Below are positions 1,728 to 33,056 of a DNA stretch of 37,157 bases, one piece after another. Origin of the DNA: a virus (Duplodnaviria > Caudoviricetes); the IMG/VR virus record IMGVR_UViG_3300033417_000033, positions 1 through 37,157 of that record; one strand, 5' to 3'. Below the pieces are notes generated by a model that saw nothing but the letters and a program-made list of their open reading frames with translations, ran no database searches and was not told the DNA's origin. Both the position numbers and the translations under genes were made by a program. Numbering within the stretch: position 1 is the stretch's first letter; every line of letters starts with the position of its first letter.

Positions 1728-2366
1728 ATGATAATAAGTCCGGACAATGCGGTAGTAGGGATGGCGGCGGCGAAGGGGAATGATAGCGCGTTTGAATTGC
1801 GTGCGGTTAAAGTAGATCCGGCGGAGAGTATGATCTATGGGAGTAATGGGCATTGTTTGTATTGGTCGAGGTTGGAGCATACAGATGATGAGTTCCCGGA
1901 TTGTGCGATTGCCGGCGCGGTGGCGAGTAAAGAGTGTGTGCTGATTCCGGCGGATAAATTAGAGAAGGCGTTTGCTAGTGTGGCATCGAAAAGTGTTATG
2001 CTGATATTGCAGTGCGTTCAGGTGTTGACGGATGAGACGCATCATCATCTGGTGACAACGGATTGCGATACCGTGCAGGATATGAAGGTGAAGCACTGTG
2101 AGTATGGGGATTGGCCAGCCGTTAAGCAGATACGGCAGGCGGTGGAGGTCGAGCGCGAGAAGGGTCATACGGGGGTGGTGGGAATCTCCCTTGAGGAGTT
2201 AGAGCGCTTGGTCAAGATGACGAAGAAGCTGAGCAAGGGGGAGAAGATGGCGGTGGTTGAATTGGAAATAAATATGATTGATATGGAGCAGAATCCGATC
2301 GGTGTCAAGCTGAGACATCGGGATGATTTCGGGGGGCTGATTATGCCTTGTCTGGTGGGGGGTTGA
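1728..2366 (+). CDS. DNA polymerase III beta-clamp-like protein (partial clamp fold)
   Basis: 'GSNGHCLY' resembles clamp ATDGHRL; 'YGDWPAV' resembles G.YP; C-terminal 'GLIMP' resembles YVLMP. Confidence 0.55.
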   Translation: MIISPDNAVVGMAAAKGNDSAFELRAVKVDPAESMIYGSNGHCLYWSRLEHTDDEFPDCAIAGAVASKECVLIPADKLEKAFASVASKSVMLILQCVQVLTDETHHHLVTTDCDTVQDMKVKHCEYGDWPAVKQIRQAVEVEREKGHTGVVGISLEELERLVKMTKKLSKGEKMAVVELEINMIDMEQNPIGVKLRHRDDFGGLIMPCLVGG

Positions 2367-2857
2367 TGGTAATGTCAAGTGTGATACCATTTGAGCGGTA
2401 TAGTGATGTACCGATACTGACGGATCTGGATACATTGTTGACGGGTGGGGAGAGTTGGCCGATTATTGGGGATCTGCTTACGGCGGCGGATTGTCGGCAG
2501 GTGGTGGCGCGTTTCACGAGTCTGTCCCGGTATGGTGATTGCTTCGAAAAAGCGAGGATTGCTCAGGACTGTTTGCGGTGGGCGGACTTTATGCTGGTAG
2601 CCGGCGAAATGCGCGTAGTCAGTGCGGACGGCGCAGGTTGCTACGGATTTGACTTCAATCCACCAGTGGAGTGTCATTGTTGGCTGACGGATCAGAAGGG
2701 GAGGGTGATTGACTTTGCGCTCCCTGGTGTAATTGAGACAGGTCTGAAGACATGTGACCAGGTGGGGCCGATATTAGTTGGGAGGGTGCCGGCGGTGCTT
2801 GCCGGAATTACACCAAGTTGGCTACGATATGGGGTAAAAGTGAGGTTAGCGCGGTGA
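2365..2857 (+). CDS. hypothetical protein (start uncertain)
   Basis: Long ORF in the coding direction. The ORF track starts at 2348; an ATG near 2365-2374 is more likely. Confidence 0.6.
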
Positions 2858-2958
2858 GTTGATATGGTGAGTAGTAGTAGGTGACGGTCGGGTAAACTGG
2901 CTCTAGGTGGGTGATTTCATTGTTAAATAATTTTTCTTATTTGGATGAAATAAAAAGG

Positions 2959-2988
2959 TTGACTGTTTTTTGATAGAAATGTTAGAAT
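2959..2988 (+). promoter_or_regulatory. sigma70-type promoter
   Basis: TTGACT-18 bp-TAGAAT with extended -10 TG, in an AT-rich intergenic region ahead of the replication operon. Confidence 0.65.
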
Positions 2989-3027
2989 TGTTTCACTTGT
3001 TTAGCTTTGTGGATGATTATTACTTAG

Positions 3028-3243
3028 ATGGGAGGTGAGATAGAGCAGATGGCAGATAGAGAGCAGAAAATACAATGGAGCACAAGAGGGATGTTGGTGA
3101 GGCATCATACGTTGATGCGGCGGCTCGCGGCAGACAAAAGAACGACGATGGAAGAGGTACACAATCGGGCGCTTGAGATTGGGCTGGGGGTGATTGAGCG
3201 GGAGGTATTTGAGCAATTGGTGAGTGAGGAGGTGGGGGGATGA
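3028..3243 (+). CDS. small DNA-binding protein, ribbon-helix-helix-like (start may be ATG 3049)
   Basis: 'HTLMRRLAADKRTTMEEVHNRALEIGL' fits an RHH helix pattern. First gene after the promoter. Confidence 0.55.
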   Translation: MGGEIEQMADREQKIQWSTRGMLVRHHTLMRRLAADKRTTMEEVHNRALEIGLGVIEREVFEQLVSEEVGG

Positions 3244-4187
3244 TTCAGGTAGATAATACACTATTATGTGATGTCGCCAAATGTGACGCCGCCGGGATTG
3301 CTCGTCATGTCTTGCACCTACGCGGCACCGGCGAGAAGGTCGCGGCGGATATCGGGAACTGCTTCCATGCGGGACTGGAGCAGCATTTCAGGGGTGCCGG
3401 TAAAGAGCAGGTGCTGGTAGCATTCCGGGCCGAGCATGCGAAGTTATTCCCGGCGCAACTCCAACCGGAAGAGGATCGCTTCACGCTGGAAAACTGCCTA
3501 CGCATAATGGGCCGATATTGTGACACGAGGCCCGTCGAGCGATTCCCGTTTGTGCCGGTTTCATTTGAGCAGACGGTCGGTTTTCCACTCGCGGAGGACA
3601 TAACGTTCTATGTGAAAAGGGACTTGCTCGTGCAGGATAAGGTCAGCGGCTTGAGTGCGCCCCTGGATCATAAAACGACACGTACAATCAGCGAGTGGTG
3701 GTCCGGGAAGTATCGGATGACGAGTCAGATGAGCGGCTACGTGTGGGCCGGCCAACAGGAAACGGGCCAGCCGATGGGGGAGTGCTATGTGAATGCTCTG
3801 GAGGTGATGAAGGTGCCCAATAGCACGAGAAAGTGCACGACGCATAAGGTGCCCTATGCGGAATGCGGAATTGAACATGTTAAGTTTGAGTTGCTTGTAT
3901 ATGCTCGAAGCCCGGAGATGATCGCACGGTGGAAGGAGGATGCGATTTTGTTGGCCGGGCAATTCGCTCTCCTGCAGAAAGCATTTCCATCGGTGGAATA
4001 TCTTCCGTATGCAAGACGAAATGGGGCATTCAATGACGGGTGTACATTTTGCGAGTTCAAGAAGTGGTGTGCGGTTGGGTTCGATGCTGGGATGGTGAGT
4101 GGGCTGGTAGAGTATGAGCGGTGGGAACCGTGGGCGGTTGGGCAAGGGCAGGATGGGCCGGTGCCGGCAGGCGAATTGCCCTACTGA
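3240..4187 (+). CDS. PD-(D/E)XK exonuclease, Cas4/RecB-like
   Basis: 'GNCFHAGLE', 'RDLL...DHKTT', 'QMSGYVW', and C-terminal 'CTFCEFKKWC' with an N-terminal Cys (possible Fe-S). Confidence 0.85.
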   Translation: MIQVDNTLLCDVAKCDAAGIARHVLHLRGTGEKVAADIGNCFHAGLEQHFRGAGKEQVLVAFRAEHAKLFPAQLQPEEDRFTLENCLRIMGRYCDTRPVERFPFVPVSFEQTVGFPLAEDITFYVKRDLLVQDKVSGLSAPLDHKTTRTISEWWSGKYRMTSQMSGYVWAGQQETGQPMGECYVNALEVMKVPNSTRKCTTHKVPYAECGIEHVKFELLVYARSPEMIARWKEDAILLAGQFALLQKAFPSVEYLPYARRNGAFNDGCTFCEFKKWCAVGFDAGMVSGLVEYERWEPWAVGQGQDGPVPAGELPY

Positions 4188-6806: not shown

Positions 6807-6953
6807 AGAACGGTGGCGGAATTGGTAGACGCACTGCTGGAAAGCTATTCGAAAGATGTTGCAAATATAGCAGATTGACGGTGGAAACAAGCCCTTTTAA
6901 GGATGTCTTACAAGCCCGAAAGCCCAATGTAGGTTCGAATCCTGCCCGTTTTG
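6807..6953 (+). ncRNA. tRNA-like RNA with expanded anticodon/variable region (no assignable anticodon)
   Basis: Acceptor stem AGAACGG/CCGTTTT, Leu/Ser-type D-arm TGGCGGAATTGGTAGACGC, T-arm GTAGG-TTCGAAT-CCTGC, with about 95 nt between D and T arms. Confidence 0.7.
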
Positions 6954-8236: not shown

Positions 8237-8523
8237 AAGGAAACGCAAGCTGTCATCTTCCGAATGATCGTTATCGGGAGGGGTGGGAGAGGGTTTTTGG
8301 GGCGAAGAAGTGTTTGAAGTGTGGGAAGGATTGTTCGACGGATTCTGACTCGCTTAATCACAAATACACCGGCGAGTGTGAAACTTGCTGGAACTCTCGC
8401 TGCATTAACTGCTTGAGTGATATGTTTGAAGAGGATGGTACGTGTAAAGGGTGTGGGATTAATCTTAAAAGGTATCGGGATATTGTGACTACTGCGATTG
8501 ATGAACATAAGGTTAAAAAATGA
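8233..8523 (+). CDS. Cys-rich (Zn-ribbon) hypothetical protein
   Basis: Four CxxC motifs; ATGA overlap with polA. Confidence 0.65.
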   Translation: MKGNASCHLPNDRYREGWERVFGAKKCLKCGKDCSTDSDSLNHKYTGECETCWNSRCINCLSDMFEEDGTCKGCGINLKRYRDIVTTAIDEHKVKK

Positions 8524-10418
8524 ACGCAGCAGCCGCATACGCCAGCCGAACACTCGGACGCTTCGTCCCAGATGAAGGGCCACTTGATGCACCTATACTC
8601 GTAATCGGTGATGTACCGTGGACACAAGAGGCGAATCTGGGCAGGCCGTTCGCCGGGCAGGCAGGTAAACAGCAGGATATCTGGTGGCGGGAGGTCGGAC
8701 TTGAGCGTAGCAAGATGCGCCTGATCAATCTCTATCCGTATCAGCCCGCCCGGAATGATGTAGAGAGTGTTCCAATCGGCGAGTTGGTGCCTTGGATCTC
8801 AAAATTGCATGAGCGGATTGCGGAAATGCCCGGGCTACGTGTAATCGTCACGCTTGGCAACTACGCTACGTTTGCACTCACCGGCAAAGGACAGGTAAAG
8901 GCAGCGGTCAGGCAGGTTTTCTCACCCGGTGAAGCAACGGTGATCGAGAAGAAGGCGGGCATCTCAAAATTGCGAGGATCTGTTTACCGGTATCGGGATC
9001 TCCGCGGGAGAGAGATAATCGTAGTGCCGATCACGCACCCATCGACAGTAATGTGCATGCAGAAGTGGGAGAAGCGCACAGTTCGGGATTGGCAGCGGGT
9101 GGCGCGGATACTGCGAGTTGGCCAGGTGCCGATTGAGCGCCGTCATATCGTAAGTCCCGATGAGTGGCAGGTAGCGGACTTCGCGAGGATGGTGGAAGCG
9201 AATGCAGGGGATATCGCTATGGCCACGGACATTGAAACGTGGGGCAGTCAGCTATCATGTGTCGGATTTGCACTCTCGCCTACTGAGTCGATTACAATTC
9301 CGCTTATTGGCCGGGCAAAAGATGTGATGATGCCGTATGTGAAAAGGCTATGTGAGTCGGCAGCCCCTAAGATATTATGTAATGGAATGTATGATGCCTA
9401 TTGGCTGGCCTGGTACGGAATATGGCTGGCGAATTTCACCTGGGACGTGCAACTGATGCACCATGCGATTGATCCGGCGGAGTCGCACAGCTTGGACTTT
9501 CTCGCCTCGATCTATTGCGACGACTACCGTTATTGGAAAGACGAAGGCAAAGATGGCGAGGAGGTGATCCGCTATAGTGATGAACTTGAAGCTCTATGGG
9601 TATATAACGGCCTGGATTGTTGTTATACGAGAGAGTTGCTCGATTGCATTTATGGAGATTTGTATCAGCAGGGGTTGGTGGATTTCTACTTCCGGCATTA
9701 TCAGGCGCTGCTTGATCCGCTGCTTAGAACAAGCCTGCACGGATTCCGGGTGGATAAGAAGGCGCAGAAAAGTTGGGCGAAACAACTTCGGGGGGAGCTT
9801 GAGGAGATACATGGGCAGCTTGTTGCAGCGGCAGGGGAGGAGTTGTTCGCGGAAGAGGAGAGGTGCGCATTAAGGGAGCCGACTACTGCCGAGTGGCAGT
9901 GCTTACTGGTGCCGGATATGAATGGGAAGTTGCCGGGTGTTGAGGTAGCGAATCCTCCGATAGCGAAACAGATAAGTAAGGAGGGGAGGGCAGCTCTGAT
10001 GACAAGCGGCCTCACGTATATGATAGGTGGGCAGAATGCTGGGAAGATTCGTTTCAAAGTGCGCTCGACCAAAAAGGATTTCAGCAAGGATAAGTTGATA
10101 CGGTTTTTCTATGAGACGCTCGGTCTTCCAAAGCAATTCAAGCTGTCGAAGGGGGTAGGCGGGAAAAAGCGCACTGTCTCACTGGATGAGGGTTCGATTC
10201 GTAAAATGACCGCAAAATGGCCGGATAAGATTGGCAATTGGGGGAATTTGCTATTGGCGTATCGAGAGAAGAAGAAGGAGCTTGACTACCTGAAAGGGTC
10301 GTATGACGGGGATGGGCGGATTCGTTGTAGCTATAAGATGTTGACTGAGGCGGGGCGGCTTTCGAGTAGTACGAATCCGCGTAGGACTGGTTACAATTTA
10401 CAAAACATAAAACGTTGA
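8520..10418 (+). CDS. polA: family A DNA polymerase, N-terminal part: UDG-like domain, 3'-5' exonuclease, thumb
   Basis: UDG motifs 'VIGDVPW..E...GRPFAGQAG' and 'THPS'. Exo I 'TDIET', Exo II 'NGMYD', Exo III 'YNGLD'. Ends 'GRLSSS..P....NLQNIKR*' before polymerase motif A. Confidence 0.9.
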   Translation: MNAAAAYASRTLGRFVPDEGPLDAPILVIGDVPWTQEANLGRPFAGQAGKQQDIWWREVGLERSKMRLINLYPYQPARNDVESVPIGELVPWISKLHERIAEMPGLRVIVTLGNYATFALTGKGQVKAAVRQVFSPGEATVIEKKAGISKLRGSVYRYRDLRGREIIVVPITHPSTVMCMQKWEKRTVRDWQRVARILRVGQVPIERRHIVSPDEWQVADFARMVEANAGDIAMATDIETWGSQLSCVGFALSPTESITIPLIGRAKDVMMPYVKRLCESAAPKILCNGMYDAYWLAWYGIWLANFTWDVQLMHHAIDPAESHSLDFLASIYCDDYRYWKDEGKDGEEVIRYSDELEALWVYNGLDCCYTRELLDCIYGDLYQQGLVDFYFRHYQALLDPLLRTSLHGFRVDKKAQKSWAKQLRGELEEIHGQLVAAAGEELFAEEERCALREPTTAEWQCLLVPDMNGKLPGVEVANPPIAKQISKEGRAALMTSGLTYMIGGQNAGKIRFKVRSTKKDFSKDKLIRFFYETLGLPKQFKLSKGVGGKKRTVSLDEGSIRKMTAKWPDKIGNWGNLLLAYREKKKELDYLKGSYDGDGRIRCSYKMLTEAGRLSSSTNPRRTGYNLQNIKR

Positions 10419-10433
10419 AATCATTAGATAAAA

Positions 10434-11165
10434 ATGCAATACCCCACCCAAATACTTATACCTGAGTTGATCCCGCGCAGTAGCTGGTTTTCGAACTTGC
10501 GCTCTCTCCTCTCGCAAGAGCAATGGGACATCATTCGAAAAGACAGCTACCGTGCGGCAGGCTACCGCTGTGAAATCTGCTGTGGGAAGGGGGAAAAGTG
10601 GCCTGTCGAATGCCACGAGCGGTGGGCGTTTGATGACGCGACGGGCATCCAATATCTGGAGGGGGTAATCGCGCTGTGTCCAATGTGCCATAAGGTGAAG
10701 CATATCGGGCTGGCTGAGACGAGGGGGGAGGGGACAGCGGCAATTGCTTGGATGGCTCGGGTGAATGGTTGGCCTTCTGAGGTGGCGAAGGCTGCGAGAG
10801 ATGGGGCATTTGTGCAGTGGGAAGAGCGCTCGCGGAGGAAGTGGCAGATTGATTATAGTCGAGCACCCTTTGTGATCCAGCAACTTGTGCGGGCGGTGGT
10901 GGATAGTACGCGGCAGCCTGCGCTTAAGGTACCGCCTGTGCCGGTGTCGAAAAGTAAACAATTGTTGCGAAAGATGCAGGCAGAGCGGATAAAGCAAAAG
11001 CAAGCAGATGACGGGCGACGTGAACTTGAAATGATCGAGCGATTGAGGATTACGAAGCAGACGGAAGCAACCGAAAGAATAGCTTATGATTCTGCGAAGT
11101 TCAAAACAAAAAAGTATTTGAGCAAAAACAAGCAAAAGCACCGATTCGCCAAATTCGCAAATTAA
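10434..11165 (+). CDS. HNH endonuclease
   Basis: 'ELIPRSSWFSNLRS', 'RCEIC', 'ECHERW', 'LCPMCHKVKH'; basic C-terminal extension. Confidence 0.8.
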   Translation: MQYPTQILIPELIPRSSWFSNLRSLLSQEQWDIIRKDSYRAAGYRCEICCGKGEKWPVECHERWAFDDATGIQYLEGVIALCPMCHKVKHIGLAETRGEGTAAIAWMARVNGWPSEVAKAARDGAFVQWEERSRRKWQIDYSRAPFVIQQLVRAVVDSTRQPALKVPPVPVSKSKQLLRKMQAERIKQKQADDGRRELEMIERLRITKQTEATERIAYDSAKFKTKKYLSKNKQKHRFAKFAN

Positions 11166-11201
11166 GGTTGGAAGATTAGATATTAGATTGAGGTTGGGAA
11201 G

Positions 11202-11292
11202 GTGTAACGACAAGGGTGAGCAGACCGGGCCACCTAAACATGAATAAAAAAATCAGGCGGTTCCCCGGTTCTGCTCTACCCGCTTGTTATGT
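11202..11292 (-). other. attC-like recombination site 1 (91 bp)
   Basis: Minus strand: ACATAAC-AAGCG-GGT[A]GAGC-AG[A]ACCGGG...CCCGGTCT-GCTCACC-CTTGTC-GTTACAC. Matches R''-5-L''...L'-6-R' with two unpaired bases. Confidence 0.85.
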
Positions 11293-11644
11293 GCTTTTGC
11301 ACGGAGGTCATTTATGGGAATTGATTATGATGGTGGGATGATTGTTGGTGAAATAGGCAGCAGATTGGGCTCTGTCGATGCTCCTGATGGACTGTCGGAA
11401 TGGGCAGAAGATAACGACATGAAAACCATGGCGATGCACTATGATGCTGATTCTGATTGGTGCTATTACGGATTTGAGGTGCCTAATGTCCTTGTCAGCG
11501 AGATAGACCAGGCGTGGCTTGATAATCTAAGAGCCAAAGCGGCCAAATTTGAAGAATTGACAAAAATCCCGGCTAAACTGGTTGGGACGCAAAACATTTG
11601 GTAGCACATAACGACAAGGGTGAGCAGACCGGGCCACCTAAACA
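11205..11644 (+). repeat. 36-bp perfect direct repeat (11205-11240 and 11609-11644); the second copy is an attC half-site
   Basis: TAACGACAAGGGTGAGCAGACCGGGCCACCTAAACA occurs twice. Confidence 0.95.
11314..11604 (+). CDS. cassette ORF, hypothetical protein
   Basis: GGAGG at 11303 and ATG at 11314; the stop abuts GCACATAAC. Confidence 0.8.
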   Translation: MGIDYDGGMIVGEIGSRLGSVDAPDGLSEWAEDNDMKTMAMHYDADSDWCYYGFEVPNVLVSEIDQAWLDNLRAKAAKFEELTKIPAKLVGTQNIW

Positions 11645-11656
11645 CAGGAGGTTGGT

Positions 11657-12007
11657 TTGGCGACATATAGATACCCGATTGTTCCAATAGACGATGACCT
11701 GCAACAGCTTGATATGGATGACATTAACAGCTTTGGAAAAGGTGAGGTCTGCCAGTATTTGAATGAAGTGCTTGAACACTACGGACCTCCTTGTGAGTTT
11801 TGTCGTCATTTCGATATGTTTTGCGAGCTAAAAATCAGGAACATAAAATACGATCTACGGATTGGGCCTTACGAGTCATGGCACATCAGAAAGTTTTGCG
11901 AAAAACACGAGGGCATAGATAACAGTGAGCAGCAGGACGAAGAGCGGTCGCGGATGCTGCGGAACCAATTAAACTGCGATGCTCAGACATACGGTTCAGG
12001 CTCATAG
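11657..12007 (+). CDS. cassette ORF, Cys-containing hypothetical protein
   Basis: AGGAGG at 11646, TTG start; 'CEFCRHF..FC'. Confidence 0.65.
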   Translation: MATYRYPIVPIDDDLQQLDMDDINSFGKGEVCQYLNEVLEHYGPPCEFCRHFDMFCELKIRNIKYDLRIGPYESWHIRKFCEKHEGIDNSEQQDEERSRMLRNQLNCDAQTYGSGS

Positions 12008-12011
12008 AGCA

Positions 12012-12087
12012 ATACAACGGCTGAATTAACCGGCGCGCGTTAGCGCGTCCGAGCGAGGAACGAGCGATGTTGAATGATTTGTTAGCT
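12012..12087 (-). other. attC-like recombination site (76 bp)
   Basis: Minus strand: AGCTAAC-AAATC-ATT[C]AAC...GG[A]CGCGC-TAAC-GCGCGCC-GGTTAAT-TCAGCC-GTTGTAT, with an extra insert of about 17 nt in one arm. Confidence 0.8.
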
Positions 12088-12279
12088 ACCGAGTGCCCGG
12101 AATGTGGCAGCACTGATACGGAATGGCACTGCACACAAACGACACGCAGCGGAGTTGTGGACGGTCGCCTGAGGCTGAACGAAGTAACCACGCTGTTTTT
12201 CTGTGGCTGCAATGAGTGCTCCGAAACCATTAAAACGGTGAGCGGTGACGAGCTGGCCGCAATAATGACAGGCAGCTAA
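12067..12279 (+). CDS. cassette ORF, Zn-ribbon hypothetical protein
   Basis: 'CPECGS...CNECSET'. The start lies inside the attC and the TAA stop lies inside AGCTAAC. Confidence 0.75.
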   Translation: MLNDLLATECPECGSTDTEWHCTQTTRSGVVDGRLRLNEVTTLFFCGCNECSETIKTVSGDELAAIMTGS

Positions 12280-12360
12280 CGCCGTTTTAACCAGCCGCGC
12301 CACAATGCGGCTATGAAAACCGGAACCGTTCGCGCGGTCTGGTTGAAAAATTTGTTATGT
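12274..12360 (-). other. attC-like recombination site (87 bp)
   Basis: Minus strand: ACATAAC-AAATT-TTT[C]AACC-AG[A]CCGCGC...GCGCGGCT-GGTTAAA-ACGGC-GTTAGCT. Both unpaired bases have the canonical position and identity. Confidence 0.88.
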
Positions 12361-12368
12361 GATTTTTT

Positions 12369-12716
12369 ATGATTACACAAATTGCTGACCACATGGCCCT
12401 GGTATGTCGCTGCGGCTGTGTCGGCTTTAATCTCCTCCGGTCAGTGCGTATAGAGTGCGAGGGCTGCGGGGAACAAAAAAACATGAGGTGGACAATGAAA
12501 ACGCTTGAAGGTTTGTTGAGAATGACGGTGCCCGCGAAAGACAAAGACGGCAATGATATCCAGATTACCCCGGAATTTCGGTTGTCTGTGCAGGAGACAA
12601 AAGCGATGGTCAACGGTGAGCCTGGAGTGAGAATTATCATCCACGCCGATGGCTATAATAGCGACACCCTGGATTATGTTGTTTCTGGCGATGAACTTTT
12701 GTCCTTAAACATATAA
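12369..12716 (+). CDS. cassette ORF, hypothetical (internal RBS + ATG near 12495 suggests two fused modules)
   Basis: N-terminal CxCGC...CxxC, then GAGGTGG-aca-ATG. Stop lies inside ATATAAC. Confidence 0.7.
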   Translation: MITQIADHMALVCRCGCVGFNLLRSVRIECEGCGEQKNMRWTMKTLEGLLRMTVPAKDKDGNDIQITPEFRLSVQETKAMVNGEPGVRIIIHADGYNSDTLDYVVSGDELLSLNI

Positions 12717-12863
12717 CGATGAAGCTCACCTGAACGACTATTGGTGGAAAAAGTTCGAAGCGGCCATGAAAGACACATAACATAGCAATATACGGCTGGC
12801 CACCGGGCTTGCCGAAACCACGCGGACGTTGTCCTGTCCGTTTAACTGGAGGATAGGTGATTT

Positions 12864-13058
12864 ATGAAAATAATAATCGTAGATAACTTTGATAGAGAGT
12901 CTTCTTCAGATACTCTTGTGGCAGAAAATATTAATAAATACTGGGGAGAAAAAGTCGTGGATTTTCTGAATAATAAATTCTCAGGTGATGACTCCCCTAG
13001 CTACTTCAAACTGGTTGAAGACGGTCACAAGCTATACATTTTTGAGCCTTACACTTGA
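12864..13058 (+). CDS. hypothetical phage protein
   Basis: GGAGG/AGGT RBS, 64 aa, AT-rich. Confidence 0.75.
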   Translation: MKIIIVDNFDRESSSDTLVAENINKYWGEKVVDFLNNKFSGDDSPSYFKLVEDGHKLYIFEPYT

Positions 13059-13064
13059 ACAACG

Positions 13065-13130
13065 GTGTTCGGCGGCCCAACGACTACTATTGAACGTATT
13101 AAAGCGGGTAAAACATGGCAACACATTTAA
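13065..13130 (+). pseudogene. C-terminal remnant of an HNH homing-endonuclease-type HTH
   Basis: Translates VFGGPTTTIERIKAGKTWQHI*, like the FGVS..TI..IK.GKTW.HI ends of phage HNH proteins. Overlaps the start of polA part 2. Confidence 0.55.
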
Positions 13131-13981
13131 AGAGTATTCGTGAGACGTTTTTACCCGATGAGGGGTGCGTATTCGTCCGGTGTGATCTTCAGCAAGCAGA
13201 GCACAGAATGGGCTTGATGTATTGCGGGACTCCGCGTATGCTTACCCATGTCAATACGAATGGCGCAGATTATGATTGCTTCACTGAGGAGATTGAGCCG
13301 ATTTTTGGCATAAATCCGCGTGCTGTGGATAAGGCGAAATTTAAGCAGATGCGCTACCTTACGAAGAAGATATTCCATGCGAGCTGGCGTTCAATGGCGG
13401 GGAATAAGATGTCCGAGTCGGTCAGTAAGGACACAGAAGGGCAGCTATTCATTAGCGCGAAGGAATGCCAACGCCTTATTGACACCTACTTGAAGAAGAA
13501 CCCAGAAATCACACAGATCTACATGCCGATGGTGCGGGAGCGGATTCGCTCAGTAGGGGTGCTAGAGACGAGCTGGGGTAGGCGGATTGACCTGAGAAGG
13601 CGTCGAATTGACGATGACCTTTATCGGATCGGGTATAGCTTTTACCTTCAGGCAGAAGTGGCCGATTGGACGAATCAATACGGCCTCATACCTGCTACCT
13701 ATTATATGCTCGGCAAGTACGAAAAACCTTGCAATGCTCAGGTGCATGATGAGATAATCGTGAGTGTGCCGATTGCGGATTCCTTTGACTATGCCATCTT
13801 CATCACCCTGGCCATGCAGCAGAGGCGGGAGATTCCAGCGGGGTCTGGGAATTGGCTGACGATTCCAGCCGGGGTGACAGTGGGGCGAAATTGGGGAGAT
13901 CCGAAGGGGGTGGAGTTTAAAAGGATGCCATCGAGGGATGAGTTCTATAATCAATTAAGAAAGGGGGGATTCAAATGCTGA
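13115..13981 (+). CDS. polA: family A DNA polymerase, C-terminal catalytic part
   Basis: 'IRETFLP', motif A 'DLQQAEHR', motif B 'RYLTKKIFHASW', 'TSWGRR', 'LQAEVAD', motif C 'QVHDEII'. Confidence 0.92.
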   Translation: MATHLKSIRETFLPDEGCVFVRCDLQQAEHRMGLMYCGTPRMLTHVNTNGADYDCFTEEIEPIFGINPRAVDKAKFKQMRYLTKKIFHASWRSMAGNKMSESVSKDTEGQLFISAKECQRLIDTYLKKNPEITQIYMPMVRERIRSVGVLETSWGRRIDLRRRRIDDDLYRIGYSFYLQAEVADWTNQYGLIPATYYMLGKYEKPCNAQVHDEIIVSVPIADSFDYAIFITLAMQQRREIPAGSGNWLTIPAGVTVGRNWGDPKGVEFKRMPSRDEFYNQLRKGGFKC

Positions 13982-30792: not shown

Positions 30793-31269
30793 TTAAATTG
30801 CATTGAAAAGAGAATCACAGAATGAGAAATGAACGAGAGCAAGATTATCGCCGATGTCATCTACAAATTCGAGAACGAGGGCCGCAAGGTCGGTGGTGTC
30901 GGATGAGTTAATGTACCAAGATGTGGAAGCATCAAGCGAAAGACCATATCGAAGATAGCGATTTGTAACAAGGGAGGTGTAGTCACCACCCGTATCACCA
31001 GCAGCAATTCGAGCGCTAAAAACTGCGTTCGGCAAGGCCGGGAAAATCAGTGCGGTTGTCGTATCGGCAACAGCAGCCTCTGCAGCAACACCGAGGATGG
31101 TGCCGGTTGTCGGGCCATCAGCAGCCTCAACAGCAAGACCGGAAGTCGCGATGATGATTGCGCCTTTTGCCCACGTAGTATCAGATGCCTTCGTAACGGC
31201 CATCATCGGAACCGCACCGCCACCAAGCATTTTTACAGCCTTAATATGATCACCAGTTGTCAGAGCCAT
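30793..31269 (-). CDS. capsid cement/decoration protein
   Basis: 'KGAII...G.A', 'ILGVA'; immediately upstream of the MCP. Confidence 0.65.
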   Translation of the reverse strand: MALTTGDHIKAVKMLGGGAVPMMAVTKASDTTWAKGAIIIATSGLAVEAADGPTTGTILGVAAEAAVADTTTALIFPALPNAVFSARIAAGDTGGDYTSLVTNRYLRYGLSLDASTSWYINSSDTTDLAALVLEFVDDIGDNLALVHFSFCDSLFNAI

Positions 31270-31314
31270 CTTTCATACCTCCTGAGTTTTAAAATTACTC
31301 TTATCTATATTATG

Positions 31315-31343
31315 TAAGTACAGGTTTTTTTGGTGATTGTCAA
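31315..31343 (-). promoter_or_regulatory. possible promoter for capsid genes
   Basis: TTGACA-17 bp-TACTTA (weak -10) in an AT-rich gap. Confidence 0.4.
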
Positions 31344-31345
31344 AT

Positions 31346-31543
31346 TTATTTTACCTTGTCTAATTCTGCCCGAACAAAACAGTCTTTTGCCTCAAGTAGT
31401 TTGCGCAATCCGGCTGATTTCTCAGCTCCATCAGGTAAAAAATCGTTCATGAAGTCAGCGGTAACTTTTATCTCCCTTGGAACATCCTGAAGATTCCGGG
31501 GTAAGTAATTATAAGCGAAATAACGCATTATTGGATTTGACAT
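31346..31543 (-). CDS. small helical-hairpin phage protein (possibly Acb2/Tad1-like)
   Basis: 'LPDGAEKSAGLRKLLEAKDCFVRA'. Confidence 0.55.
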   Translation of the reverse strand: MSNPIMRYFAYNYLPRNLQDVPREIKVTADFMNDFLPDGAEKSAGLRKLLEAKDCFVRAELDKVK

Positions 31544-31545
31544 AA

Positions 31546-32262
31546 TTATCCACGTCCACGAGACTGCCCCGGTAAAGGAATGCCTGGGACACCGCCGGGT
31601 TGTTTCATTTGACGTGCAATATTATTCACAGCGGTGTTCTGTGCGGATCGCTTCCGATTGATGATTTCCTGTGTACGTGGATCGAGTGTCGAATTATCGT
31701 CAGTACTGACATTCTTAAAGACATTCGGATATTTGTCTGCAATATTTCGCACGTCTGTCTCTAGTCCGTATTGCTGGCGCCGACGAGCTTCGTCTTCTTT
31801 TTGACAGATTGAAAGGTAGCGGTCAACTCGGATACACATCAACAGTACGTCGCCCACGCGAATTGTATTGTCTGCCTTACTGATGTCAGCGGCTTCGGGG
31901 AATTCTGTAGTTGTTGCAACTGACCAACCCTGGGATTTTTTCTTCCACACCGCGCTACCATTCACATTCACATAATTCACCCAACAGGTTTTCAGATAAG
32001 GGTGATTCGCGCCGATGTTCATGTAGTCATTTTCGATATCATTACGAATTTCCCGATCAATGTCAAAGGCACTTTCTGGGAGTCCGACTTTCTCCGGGCC
32101 TTGTTCAGCTGCCTGAGCGAGGGTGTCTGTGCGGGCCGCGAGAAGTTCGTCGCGCTGGTAGCCAGGTGGCGGAAGAGATGGTTCGATCCGCTCTGCCTGC
32201 TCCGGCTTAATAATACCTGGTGATTCGTTTAGTTCTTCTGCGCTGAATAGTGACATAATCAA
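31546..32262 (-). CDS. hypothetical head-module protein
   Basis: 238-aa ORF between scaffold and capsid genes (start may be ATG 32256). Confidence 0.7.
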   Translation of the reverse strand: MIMSLFSAEELNESPGIIKPEQAERIEPSLPPPGYQRDELLAARTDTLAQAAEQGPEKVGLPESAFDIDREIRNDIENDYMNIGANHPYLKTCWVNYVNVNGSAVWKKKSQGWSVATTTEFPEAADISKADNTIRVGDVLLMCIRVDRYLSICQKEDEARRRQQYGLETDVRNIADKYPNVFKNVSTDDNSTLDPRTQEIINRKRSAQNTAVNNIARQMKQPGGVPGIPLPGQSRGRG

Positions 32263-33056
32263 TTCTCCTCTCCGAAATAGTCTTTGCCTACCTTATTCCA
32301 ATAGTCTTCCCAACCATCGTAGCCGCGCCGTTGATACTCTTGATCAACTGAAACCCCTTTACTGCGGAGAGCGGTCAGCGCATCGCTACCCAAGACTTTC
32401 TTCGGATCTGGAATATCTGCGCCGTATTGCGCTCCGGTATTGCGTCCGCTTTGGCCAGATGGGGCCATTGTCAGGTCTGCCGCTGCCGATCGAAGAATCT
32501 CCTCTTTTTGCGCGGCCATAATTTTATCAACATTTTGGCCGACGGCGAGCTGATAGGCGGCTTTTCGCACCTGCGGATTCATGCGCTGATCTGCGGGAAG
32601 TTGGCGAAGATGGGCTTCCACGTCCTTTTGCACGATGTCATAATGAGGCATTTGACCGCGTGTGACTTCGCCGGTTAGCTGATTGATGACCTCGACACCC
32701 TGAGCGAATCGCGGTTCCATCTCCCGATTAATTTCCATGCGGATCTTACTGCTGTTCAGCTTATCCCGCTCGCGCATGAGTTTGGAAACTGGCTTTCCGT
32801 CTTCTACGGCGCTATCAATTGCCGCATCAAGGGAGTCGATTTGGCGGTCGATTCCTGCAATTTGATCGTCGAAGGTCGGGCCGCTCGCTTGAGGAGGTGC
32901 GAATTGCTGATGTTGTCCACCGCCGAAGCCCGCTGTTTCAAAGGCATCCAGGCGGTTACGGAGTGCGTCAAAATCGCTCTTCGGCACATAGTCAGGTGGC
33001 GTGGGTGGGGCTGATTGAACAGGTTGGCCGGTGATCGGGTCGATAGCGGGGTCCAT
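32259..33056 (-). CDS. capsid scaffolding protein (putative)
   Basis: Helical/coiled, Pro-rich N-terminus, between portal and MCP. Confidence 0.6.
   Translation of the reverse strand: MDPAIDPITGQPVQSAPPTPPDYVPKSDFDALRNRLDAFETAGFGGGQHQQFAPPQASGPTFDDQIAGIDRQIDSLDAAIDSAVEDGKPVSKLMRERDKLNSSKIRMEINREMEPRFAQGVEVINQLTGEVTRGQMPHYDIVQKDVEAHLRQLPADQRMNPQVRKAAYQLAVGQNVDKIMAAQKEEILRSAAADLTMAPSGQSGRNTGAQYGADIPDPKKVLGSDALTALRSKGVSVDQEYQRRGYDGWEDYWNKVGKDYFGEEN

Follow-up and report, generated by a model that had tools for sequence, protein, structure and literature searches.

The window, the whole stretch of 37,157 nucleotides analyzed here, is a 37-kb virus record rated 73% complete, in which portal, capsid, primase, methyltransferase, and family A polymerase genes are present. 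The polymerase gene is in two halves, between which lie an endonuclease gene and a run of small reading frames interspersed with attC-like sites:

8520..10418, plus: N-terminal half of a split family A DNA polymerase, with UDG-like and 3'-5' exonuclease domains (left context)
10434..11165, plus: HNH endonuclease gene just 5' of the array (phrog_5200, E 9.5e-49)
11202..11292, minus (top strand): attC site A, complete; 30.6 bits; fold z -4.1 on minus and -2.7 on plus
11314..11604, plus: orf1, 96 aa, phage protein family of no assigned function; 34 homologues; 25 Vibrio phage records
11606..11644, minus: half site B, consisting of R', spacer, L', and part of the stem
11657..12007, plus: orf2, 116 aa; no homologue found
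12012..12087, minus (top strand): attC site C; 31.7 bits; boxes complete, inner stem degenerate
12067..12279, plus: orf3, 70 aa; 23 homologues; 17 phage records; four invariant cysteines (two CxxC pairs)
12274..12360, minus (top strand): attC site D, complete; 49.9 bits; fold z -1.8 and -2.1
12369..12716, plus: orf4, 115 aa; conserved core from 12498; stop TAA within the next R' box
12711..12730, minus: probable half site, with R', 6-nt spacer, and L' GCTCACC; read from the sequence, no match to the model
12775..12858, minus: probable degenerate attC site E; read from the sequence, no match to the model and no significant fold
12864..13058, plus: orf5, 64 aa phage protein (phrog_21874, E 2e-14)
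13057..13075, minus: possible attI-like terminal half site, weak, with a loose by-eye likeness to the motif 5' of phage intI genes
13115..13981, plus: C-terminal half of the split DNA polymerase, with its own ATG (PF00476; right context)

The polymerase is of the UDG-fused family A type and is broken directly after the NLQN motif (window 8520-13981), with each half having its own start and stop. The phrog_17 match of the C-terminal half covers positions 995-1244, resuming after position 985 in the N-terminal half. A short polymerase form of 600–660 aa was found in most of the top 58 among 120 listed relatives, and the split is a clade-wide feature. The gap between halves was 0.3–4.9 kb in the four relatives with both halves and was filled by small unrelated genes in all three relatives inspected; the covariance model found no attC at six split-clade loci. 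Gap contents vary among relatives, and the gap is thus a variable accessory-gene slot, occupied here by the HNH gene and the attC array. A group I or II intron was considered and rejected: no Rfam match lay between the halves, each of which is a separate reading frame with its own stop or start codon at the gap, and the relatives' gaps hold unrelated genes. Elsewhere in the window, GC skew is positive across the left arm, and positions 6807-6953 give a weak Rfam tRNA-family match (31.3 bits) that ARAGORN does not confirm. At 13054-13100, one contig of run X5 has other upstream DNA joined, with four differences, and is possibly from a related phage carrying another last cassette.

Strand of the attC sites and of their genes

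Scanning both strands of the entire window for attC geometry, with an inner-stem filter, returned three sites (A, C, and D), and in all of them minus is the top strand; a looser scan gave these three and five low-quality matches. Shuffling 11151-13120 three hundred times yielded a mean of 0.07 sites and a maximum of 1, compared with the 3 observed. In each site the spacer is 5 nt, L' is 7 nt, and L'' is 8 nt with an unpaired fourth base (GGT[A]GAGC, ATT[C]AACA, and TTT[C]AACC), which is the first extrahelical base. The AAC/GTT cores of the R boxes, R'' (RYYYAAC) and R' (GTTRRRY), are exact at all three while outer bases vary. The covariance model R1, trained on 51 bacterial sites with normal-sense genes (90.7% of cells paired), scored minus best at every site (49.9 bits for D, 31.7 for C, and 30.6 for A), and the sole plus match at these sites was 13.0 bits; the training sites were chosen by the same geometry scan, so that the model tests strand and is not independent proof of attC identity. 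Folding energy was tried as a strand test and discarded because it did not discriminate between the strands. The plus strand of the window has the layout of the published attC-aadA7 bottom strand (table S3), and the crossover predicted for site A is AA|C at 11207|11208 on plus.

These results bear out the preliminary description, made from the sequence alone, in placing the canonical attC geometry on the minus strand only and all array reading frames on plus. It had also described a second extra base, which is clear in A (at 11202) and D (at 12274); at 12012, site C, the inner stem is broken, fold z is about 0, and four positions are unpaired in the model alignment. The three complete sites lie within the span it gave to the array, 11202..12360, and the array continues beyond this to approximately 13075.

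All five reading frames of the array are on plus, and homologues support four of them (orf1, orf3, orf4, and orf5); orf2 is without a match in cultured phages and its atlas scores are under 0.9. The orf4 core has 82 representatives, a few of which are repeat-protein noise, and the N-terminus is covered by one. The start codon and ribosome-binding site of orf3 (plus) are inside site C, and its TAA is part of the R' box of site D. The resulting MLNDLL start, which is the site read in frame, occurs in 5 of 23 orf3 homologues. A DNA search of the site C-D stretch against cultured phages gave no match. No promoter excess was found, with 6 promoter-like sites versus 7.0 expected, and the promoter and terminator scan was at chance level.

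The locus has three same-polarity attC sites within 1.2 kb, and no integron integrase was found on the 37-kb record (73% complete), as in a CALIN. Of the other parts of a complete integron there is a weak attI-like half site only, with no promoter excess. Only two sites (A and D) seem to fold well and the others are half or degenerate; the array is small, partly decayed, and integrase-less. In the canonical cassette the gene is on the top strand, 5' of its own attC, and here the genes are on the bottom strand.

Gene orientation in viral and bacterial arrays

Phage genomes with attC arrays were reported by Qi et al. 2023 (PMC9892861), who include CALINs, i.e. attC clusters without an integrase; the present array resembles these in having attC sites without intI and small genes of no assigned function. 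Among the four integrase-less arrays in their figures, all compared here with the sequence records, PH101 has four sites (30919-32987) opposed to minus-strand genes, and both assayed bottom strands are the coding strand; ctTUS972 is also reversed, with five sites on minus amid plus-strand genes (2069-3738). TJE1, checked against its record, has the normal orientation, and in P12002L attC1 is reversed and attC2 lies between convergent genes. In the assays of that paper IntI1 recombined five of six phage attC sites, P12002L attC1 being the failure, and bottom strands outperformed top strands, PH101 included, with top strands recombining too at low rates (PMC9892861, PMC8946536). By analogy with PH101, prediction of the plus strand as the folded substrate in our window, which was also the earlier proposal, already has experimental support in another phage. 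TJE1 and PH101 are labeled typical by Qi et al., and the passages of their text on these arrays do not discuss gene strand relative to attC strand.

A survey with one pattern and one pipeline covered those loci that had flanks, 80 of 121 viral and 80 of 126 bacterial. Its counts are bounded by a seed of one L-box type, our own simple gene caller, removal of only identical sites as duplicates, and contigs not collapsed to species; at 40 viral and 44 bacterial loci the filter left no new site, and these are uncounted. Viral sites were reversed in 82 cases, normal in 16, and mixed in 4, versus 9 reversed, 62 normal, and 9 mixed among 80 bacterial sites. By array, 25 of 28 viral arrays were reversed and 3 normal, versus 1 of 17 bacterial arrays reversed, 14 normal, and 2 mixed. 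A check by longest reading frame agreed (viral 35 reversed, 6 normal, and 12 ties; bacterial 3, 25, and 2). The reversed layout is general among the phage arrays sampled. It is not universal: TJE1 is normal, and further counter-examples are 3 of the 28 viral arrays and 17 of the 68 sites close to a viral intI gene.

Self-promoting reversed cassettes exist in hosts, e.g. toxin-antitoxin cassettes, and the window could have acquired cassettes of this kind by chance. Reversed sites do occur in bacteria (the 9 of 80 above, including a chromosomal array), but the cargo here consists of phage families, promoter-like sites are at the number expected by chance, and reversed polarity predominates in viral contigs, all of which make this explanation highly improbable. 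The chromosomal array, in a Planctomycetaceae bin (L213:409-5614, G002:C102), lies near the end of a contig with housekeeping flanks and combines, under a single attC polarity, cassettes of normal sense with a reversed block. Phage-family matches were found for 3 of 5 genes in its reversed block versus 0 of 4 normal ones. This mixed array hints at cassette exchange with hosts, or it may be a misassembly.

Integrases were surveyed at the best 80 of 282 viral IntI loci, and upstream of intI at these loci all 68 distinct sites had the bacterial attC-intI polarity. Genes at those 68 sites were reversed at 49, normal at 17, and mixed at 2, and 8 more sites were downstream of intI. All four integrases tested passed the TIGR02249 cut-off. 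Eight reversed intI loci that were inspected resemble phage early regions, and three neighbouring genes scanned from these loci, apart from one second integrase, match phage replication or recombination families. Trees were built by a quick method and by FastTree; 41 of 71 viral integrases formed a virus-only group with support of 98 against 32 bacterial rows, a thin sampling that came mostly from 401 genomes of one class, as the proteins there most similar to a phage integrase; the remaining viral integrases fell outside this group. Genes were read toward intI on its strand at 44 of 71 viral loci versus 3 of 32 bacterial loci, of which 20 were divergent. A conserved half-site motif (R box, 6-nt spacer, and L-like box) was present 60–170 bases 5' of intI at 26 of 71 viral loci (L324-L403) and is likely a compact attI. 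Separately, a divergent viral IntI-like group (L329-L332, L360, L363, L365-L368, L371, L372, and L381) has co-oriented upstream genes and almost no attC by scan.

The orientation survey and the virus-only integrase clade agree with the suggestion in the preliminary description that a distinct phage class of cassettes exists, with antisense genes in most viral arrays. The system shares with bacterial integrons (class 1 mobile and sedentary chromosomal) the R''-L''-L'-R' order, the extra bases, complementary R boxes in each cassette and, in related phages, the orientation of attC with respect to intI. It differs in that the gene is on the bottom strand after its site, without a cassette promoter, and in that genes of related phages point to intI on the same strand as intI. 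Inverted-integrase integrons (PMC13323075) are alike in having intI and cassette genes on one strand. In those, however, intI and attC share a strand, whereas in related phages all 68 upstream sites are opposite the intI strand and it is the genes that are flipped.

The mobile unit and the origin of the cassettes

Taken together, we consider it probable, at roughly 75%, that this is an integron-type attC array with genes on the bottom strand of its sites, in which the unit is likely attC followed by gene, acted upon by an ordinary IntI from elsewhere. IntI would fold the plus strand and cleave it at AA|C, which is how it treats every attC, and the chemistry would be normal with only the cargo flipped.

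R boxes on either side of the genes are complementary at 10, 9, and 8 of 10 bases, with 10 of 10 for orf1 and with R' of site E matching R'' of site D at 8 of 10. Such complementarity across a gene is a mark of a unit that has circularized, and is silent on which site body travels. For the four variable R-box bases, reversed arrays show a match from one side of the gene to the other in 39 of 68 cases and within one site in 18 of 147, and normal arrays behave likewise (29 of 40 and 11 of 98, respectively). Which site travels is addressed by an orf3 relative (L441) with 56% amino-acid identity, in which 56 of 62 bases of site C and 120 of 186 of the gene are kept, falling to 33 of 62 past the downstream AAC. 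Homology extends from the left R box to the next AAC, where the integrase cuts, and there is a compensating change in the two R boxes. Because the orf3 homologue keeps the upstream attC and not the downstream one, the mobile unit is likely attC then gene, cut at AA|C, i.e. the normal G|TT cut viewed from the other strand; the loss of identity at the downstream AAC supports the earlier proposal that a cassette here is attC followed by its reading frame. The orf1 case is weaker. In a frameshifted orf1 copy (L298), identity runs from the upstream spacer and R'' to one base past the downstream AAC, and the L boxes of its upstream site are unlike those of site A (left half 20/37). An all-against-all comparison of 150 inter-site segments gave duplicates and partial matches only, and contigs from 4 of 24 listed public runs, with fragmentary coverage, gave no joints. 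The orf1 copy lies in a long reversed array (L298:964-2764) with one site whose arms are seemingly from different attC types.

It could instead be that the chemistry itself is reversed, with the minus (top) strand recombined or the cut placed in R'', and the gene and its downstream site moving together in the bacterial manner. Low-rate recombination of top strands is seen in the assays cited above, and the left arms in L298 fail to discriminate between the upstream and downstream site. Against this, orf3 moves with its upstream site, attC polarity relative to viral intI is bacterial, and the PH101 assays favour the bottom strand (PMC9892861), such that we give this explanation very little weight.

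A second alternative is a fossil array, or homologous recombination between similar hairpins acting as hot spots and translation starts, with no integrase acting now. The half sites, the exact 36-nt duplication (11609-11644 in half site B is a copy of 11205-11240 in site A), the degenerate site C, the contig without an integrase, and the hybrid-looking site and frameshifted orf1 in L298 would all be consistent with this. It is nevertheless unlikely, given that the L441 homology is bounded by the left R box and the next AAC, that the extra-base geometry is preserved, and that many phages have intI beside reversed arrays.

A different question is where such cassettes come from. They may have been made in place if gene-less attC inserted at TAA|C after phage stop codons, with the enclosed gene becoming a reversed cassette; this would be a harmless insertion in a dense genome, would explain how the polarity originated, and is compatible with the reading preferred here. 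Insertion at TAA|C would spare the upstream gene. Cargo families are mostly plain phage genes, with attC beside the gene in 2 of 22 other loci for orf1 and 1 of 23 for orf3, and formation in place is thus a possibility. At 47 of 124 gene ends near reversed sites the TAA of the R box serves as stop codon, but normal cassettes also have their stop on the first R box, in 22 of 86. Insertion at genomic attG sites is published (10.1101/2022.09.11.507474) and is similar in offering a route for a first cassette into DNA without attI, although attG insertion alone predicts no bias of gene strand relative to attC strand. R-box complementarity across genes and site-derived starts suggest that these units arrived already formed, and an origin in place would need later selection as circular cassettes to account for the 8–10 base complementarity and those starts. 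Formation in place is a tentative idea, more probable than the fossil or reversed-chemistry explanations and less so than the reading preferred here.

Expression and exchange of reversed cassettes

Under the preferred reading, attC followed by gene with normal chemistry, the cassettes would have no promoter of their own and would be transcribed by the phage replication operon running through the split polymerase gene; an attC site may itself provide a ribosome-binding site and start codon, as for orf3. Plus-strand expression would come from a phage transcript, and such cassettes, of which L213 is the one chromosomal example, may be silent in a host integron. The integrase could act in trans, supplied by the host or by a co-infecting phage with intI, attI-like half site, and reversed array in one operon, or could be encoded in the unsequenced part of this genome. 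If attI is at the downstream end of the operon beside intI, only reversed cassettes would be read by the phage promoter. It is also conceivable that coding strands co-oriented with replication serve as lagging-strand templates, which would favour bottom-strand folding (PMC5371416).

Phage attC arrays were already published; their reversed polarity we did not find in print in a search that covered mostly literature outside subscription journals; the relevant passages of PMC8946536, PMC8876359, PMC5371416, PMC13323075, and 10.1101/2022.09.11.507474 do not describe reversed phage cassettes. Search tools list such arrays without a strand flag, which may explain why the polarity was overlooked.

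Integrons are viewed as bacterial devices, in which strand selectivity serves to place genes under the cassette promoter. Reversed polarity across phages would mean that this chemistry also serves another logic of expression and, probably, another pool of cassettes. We regard it as an even call that phages run an integron system of their own, with a virus-specific IntI clade, a compact attI-like half site at an operon end, and a separate pool of reversed cassettes made from ordinary phage genes, which would be expressed in phages, stay silent while in host integrons, and pass into phages that lack an integrase. Likely, phages shuffle accessory genes via a reversed cassette pool of their own, and reversed cassettes would offer a site-specific route to phage accessory-gene mosaicism. 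If this is true, gene families that exist both plain and as cassettes would expose how cassettes first form, and the question of cassette origin becomes testable by comparing, within one gene family, the plain members with those in cassettes.
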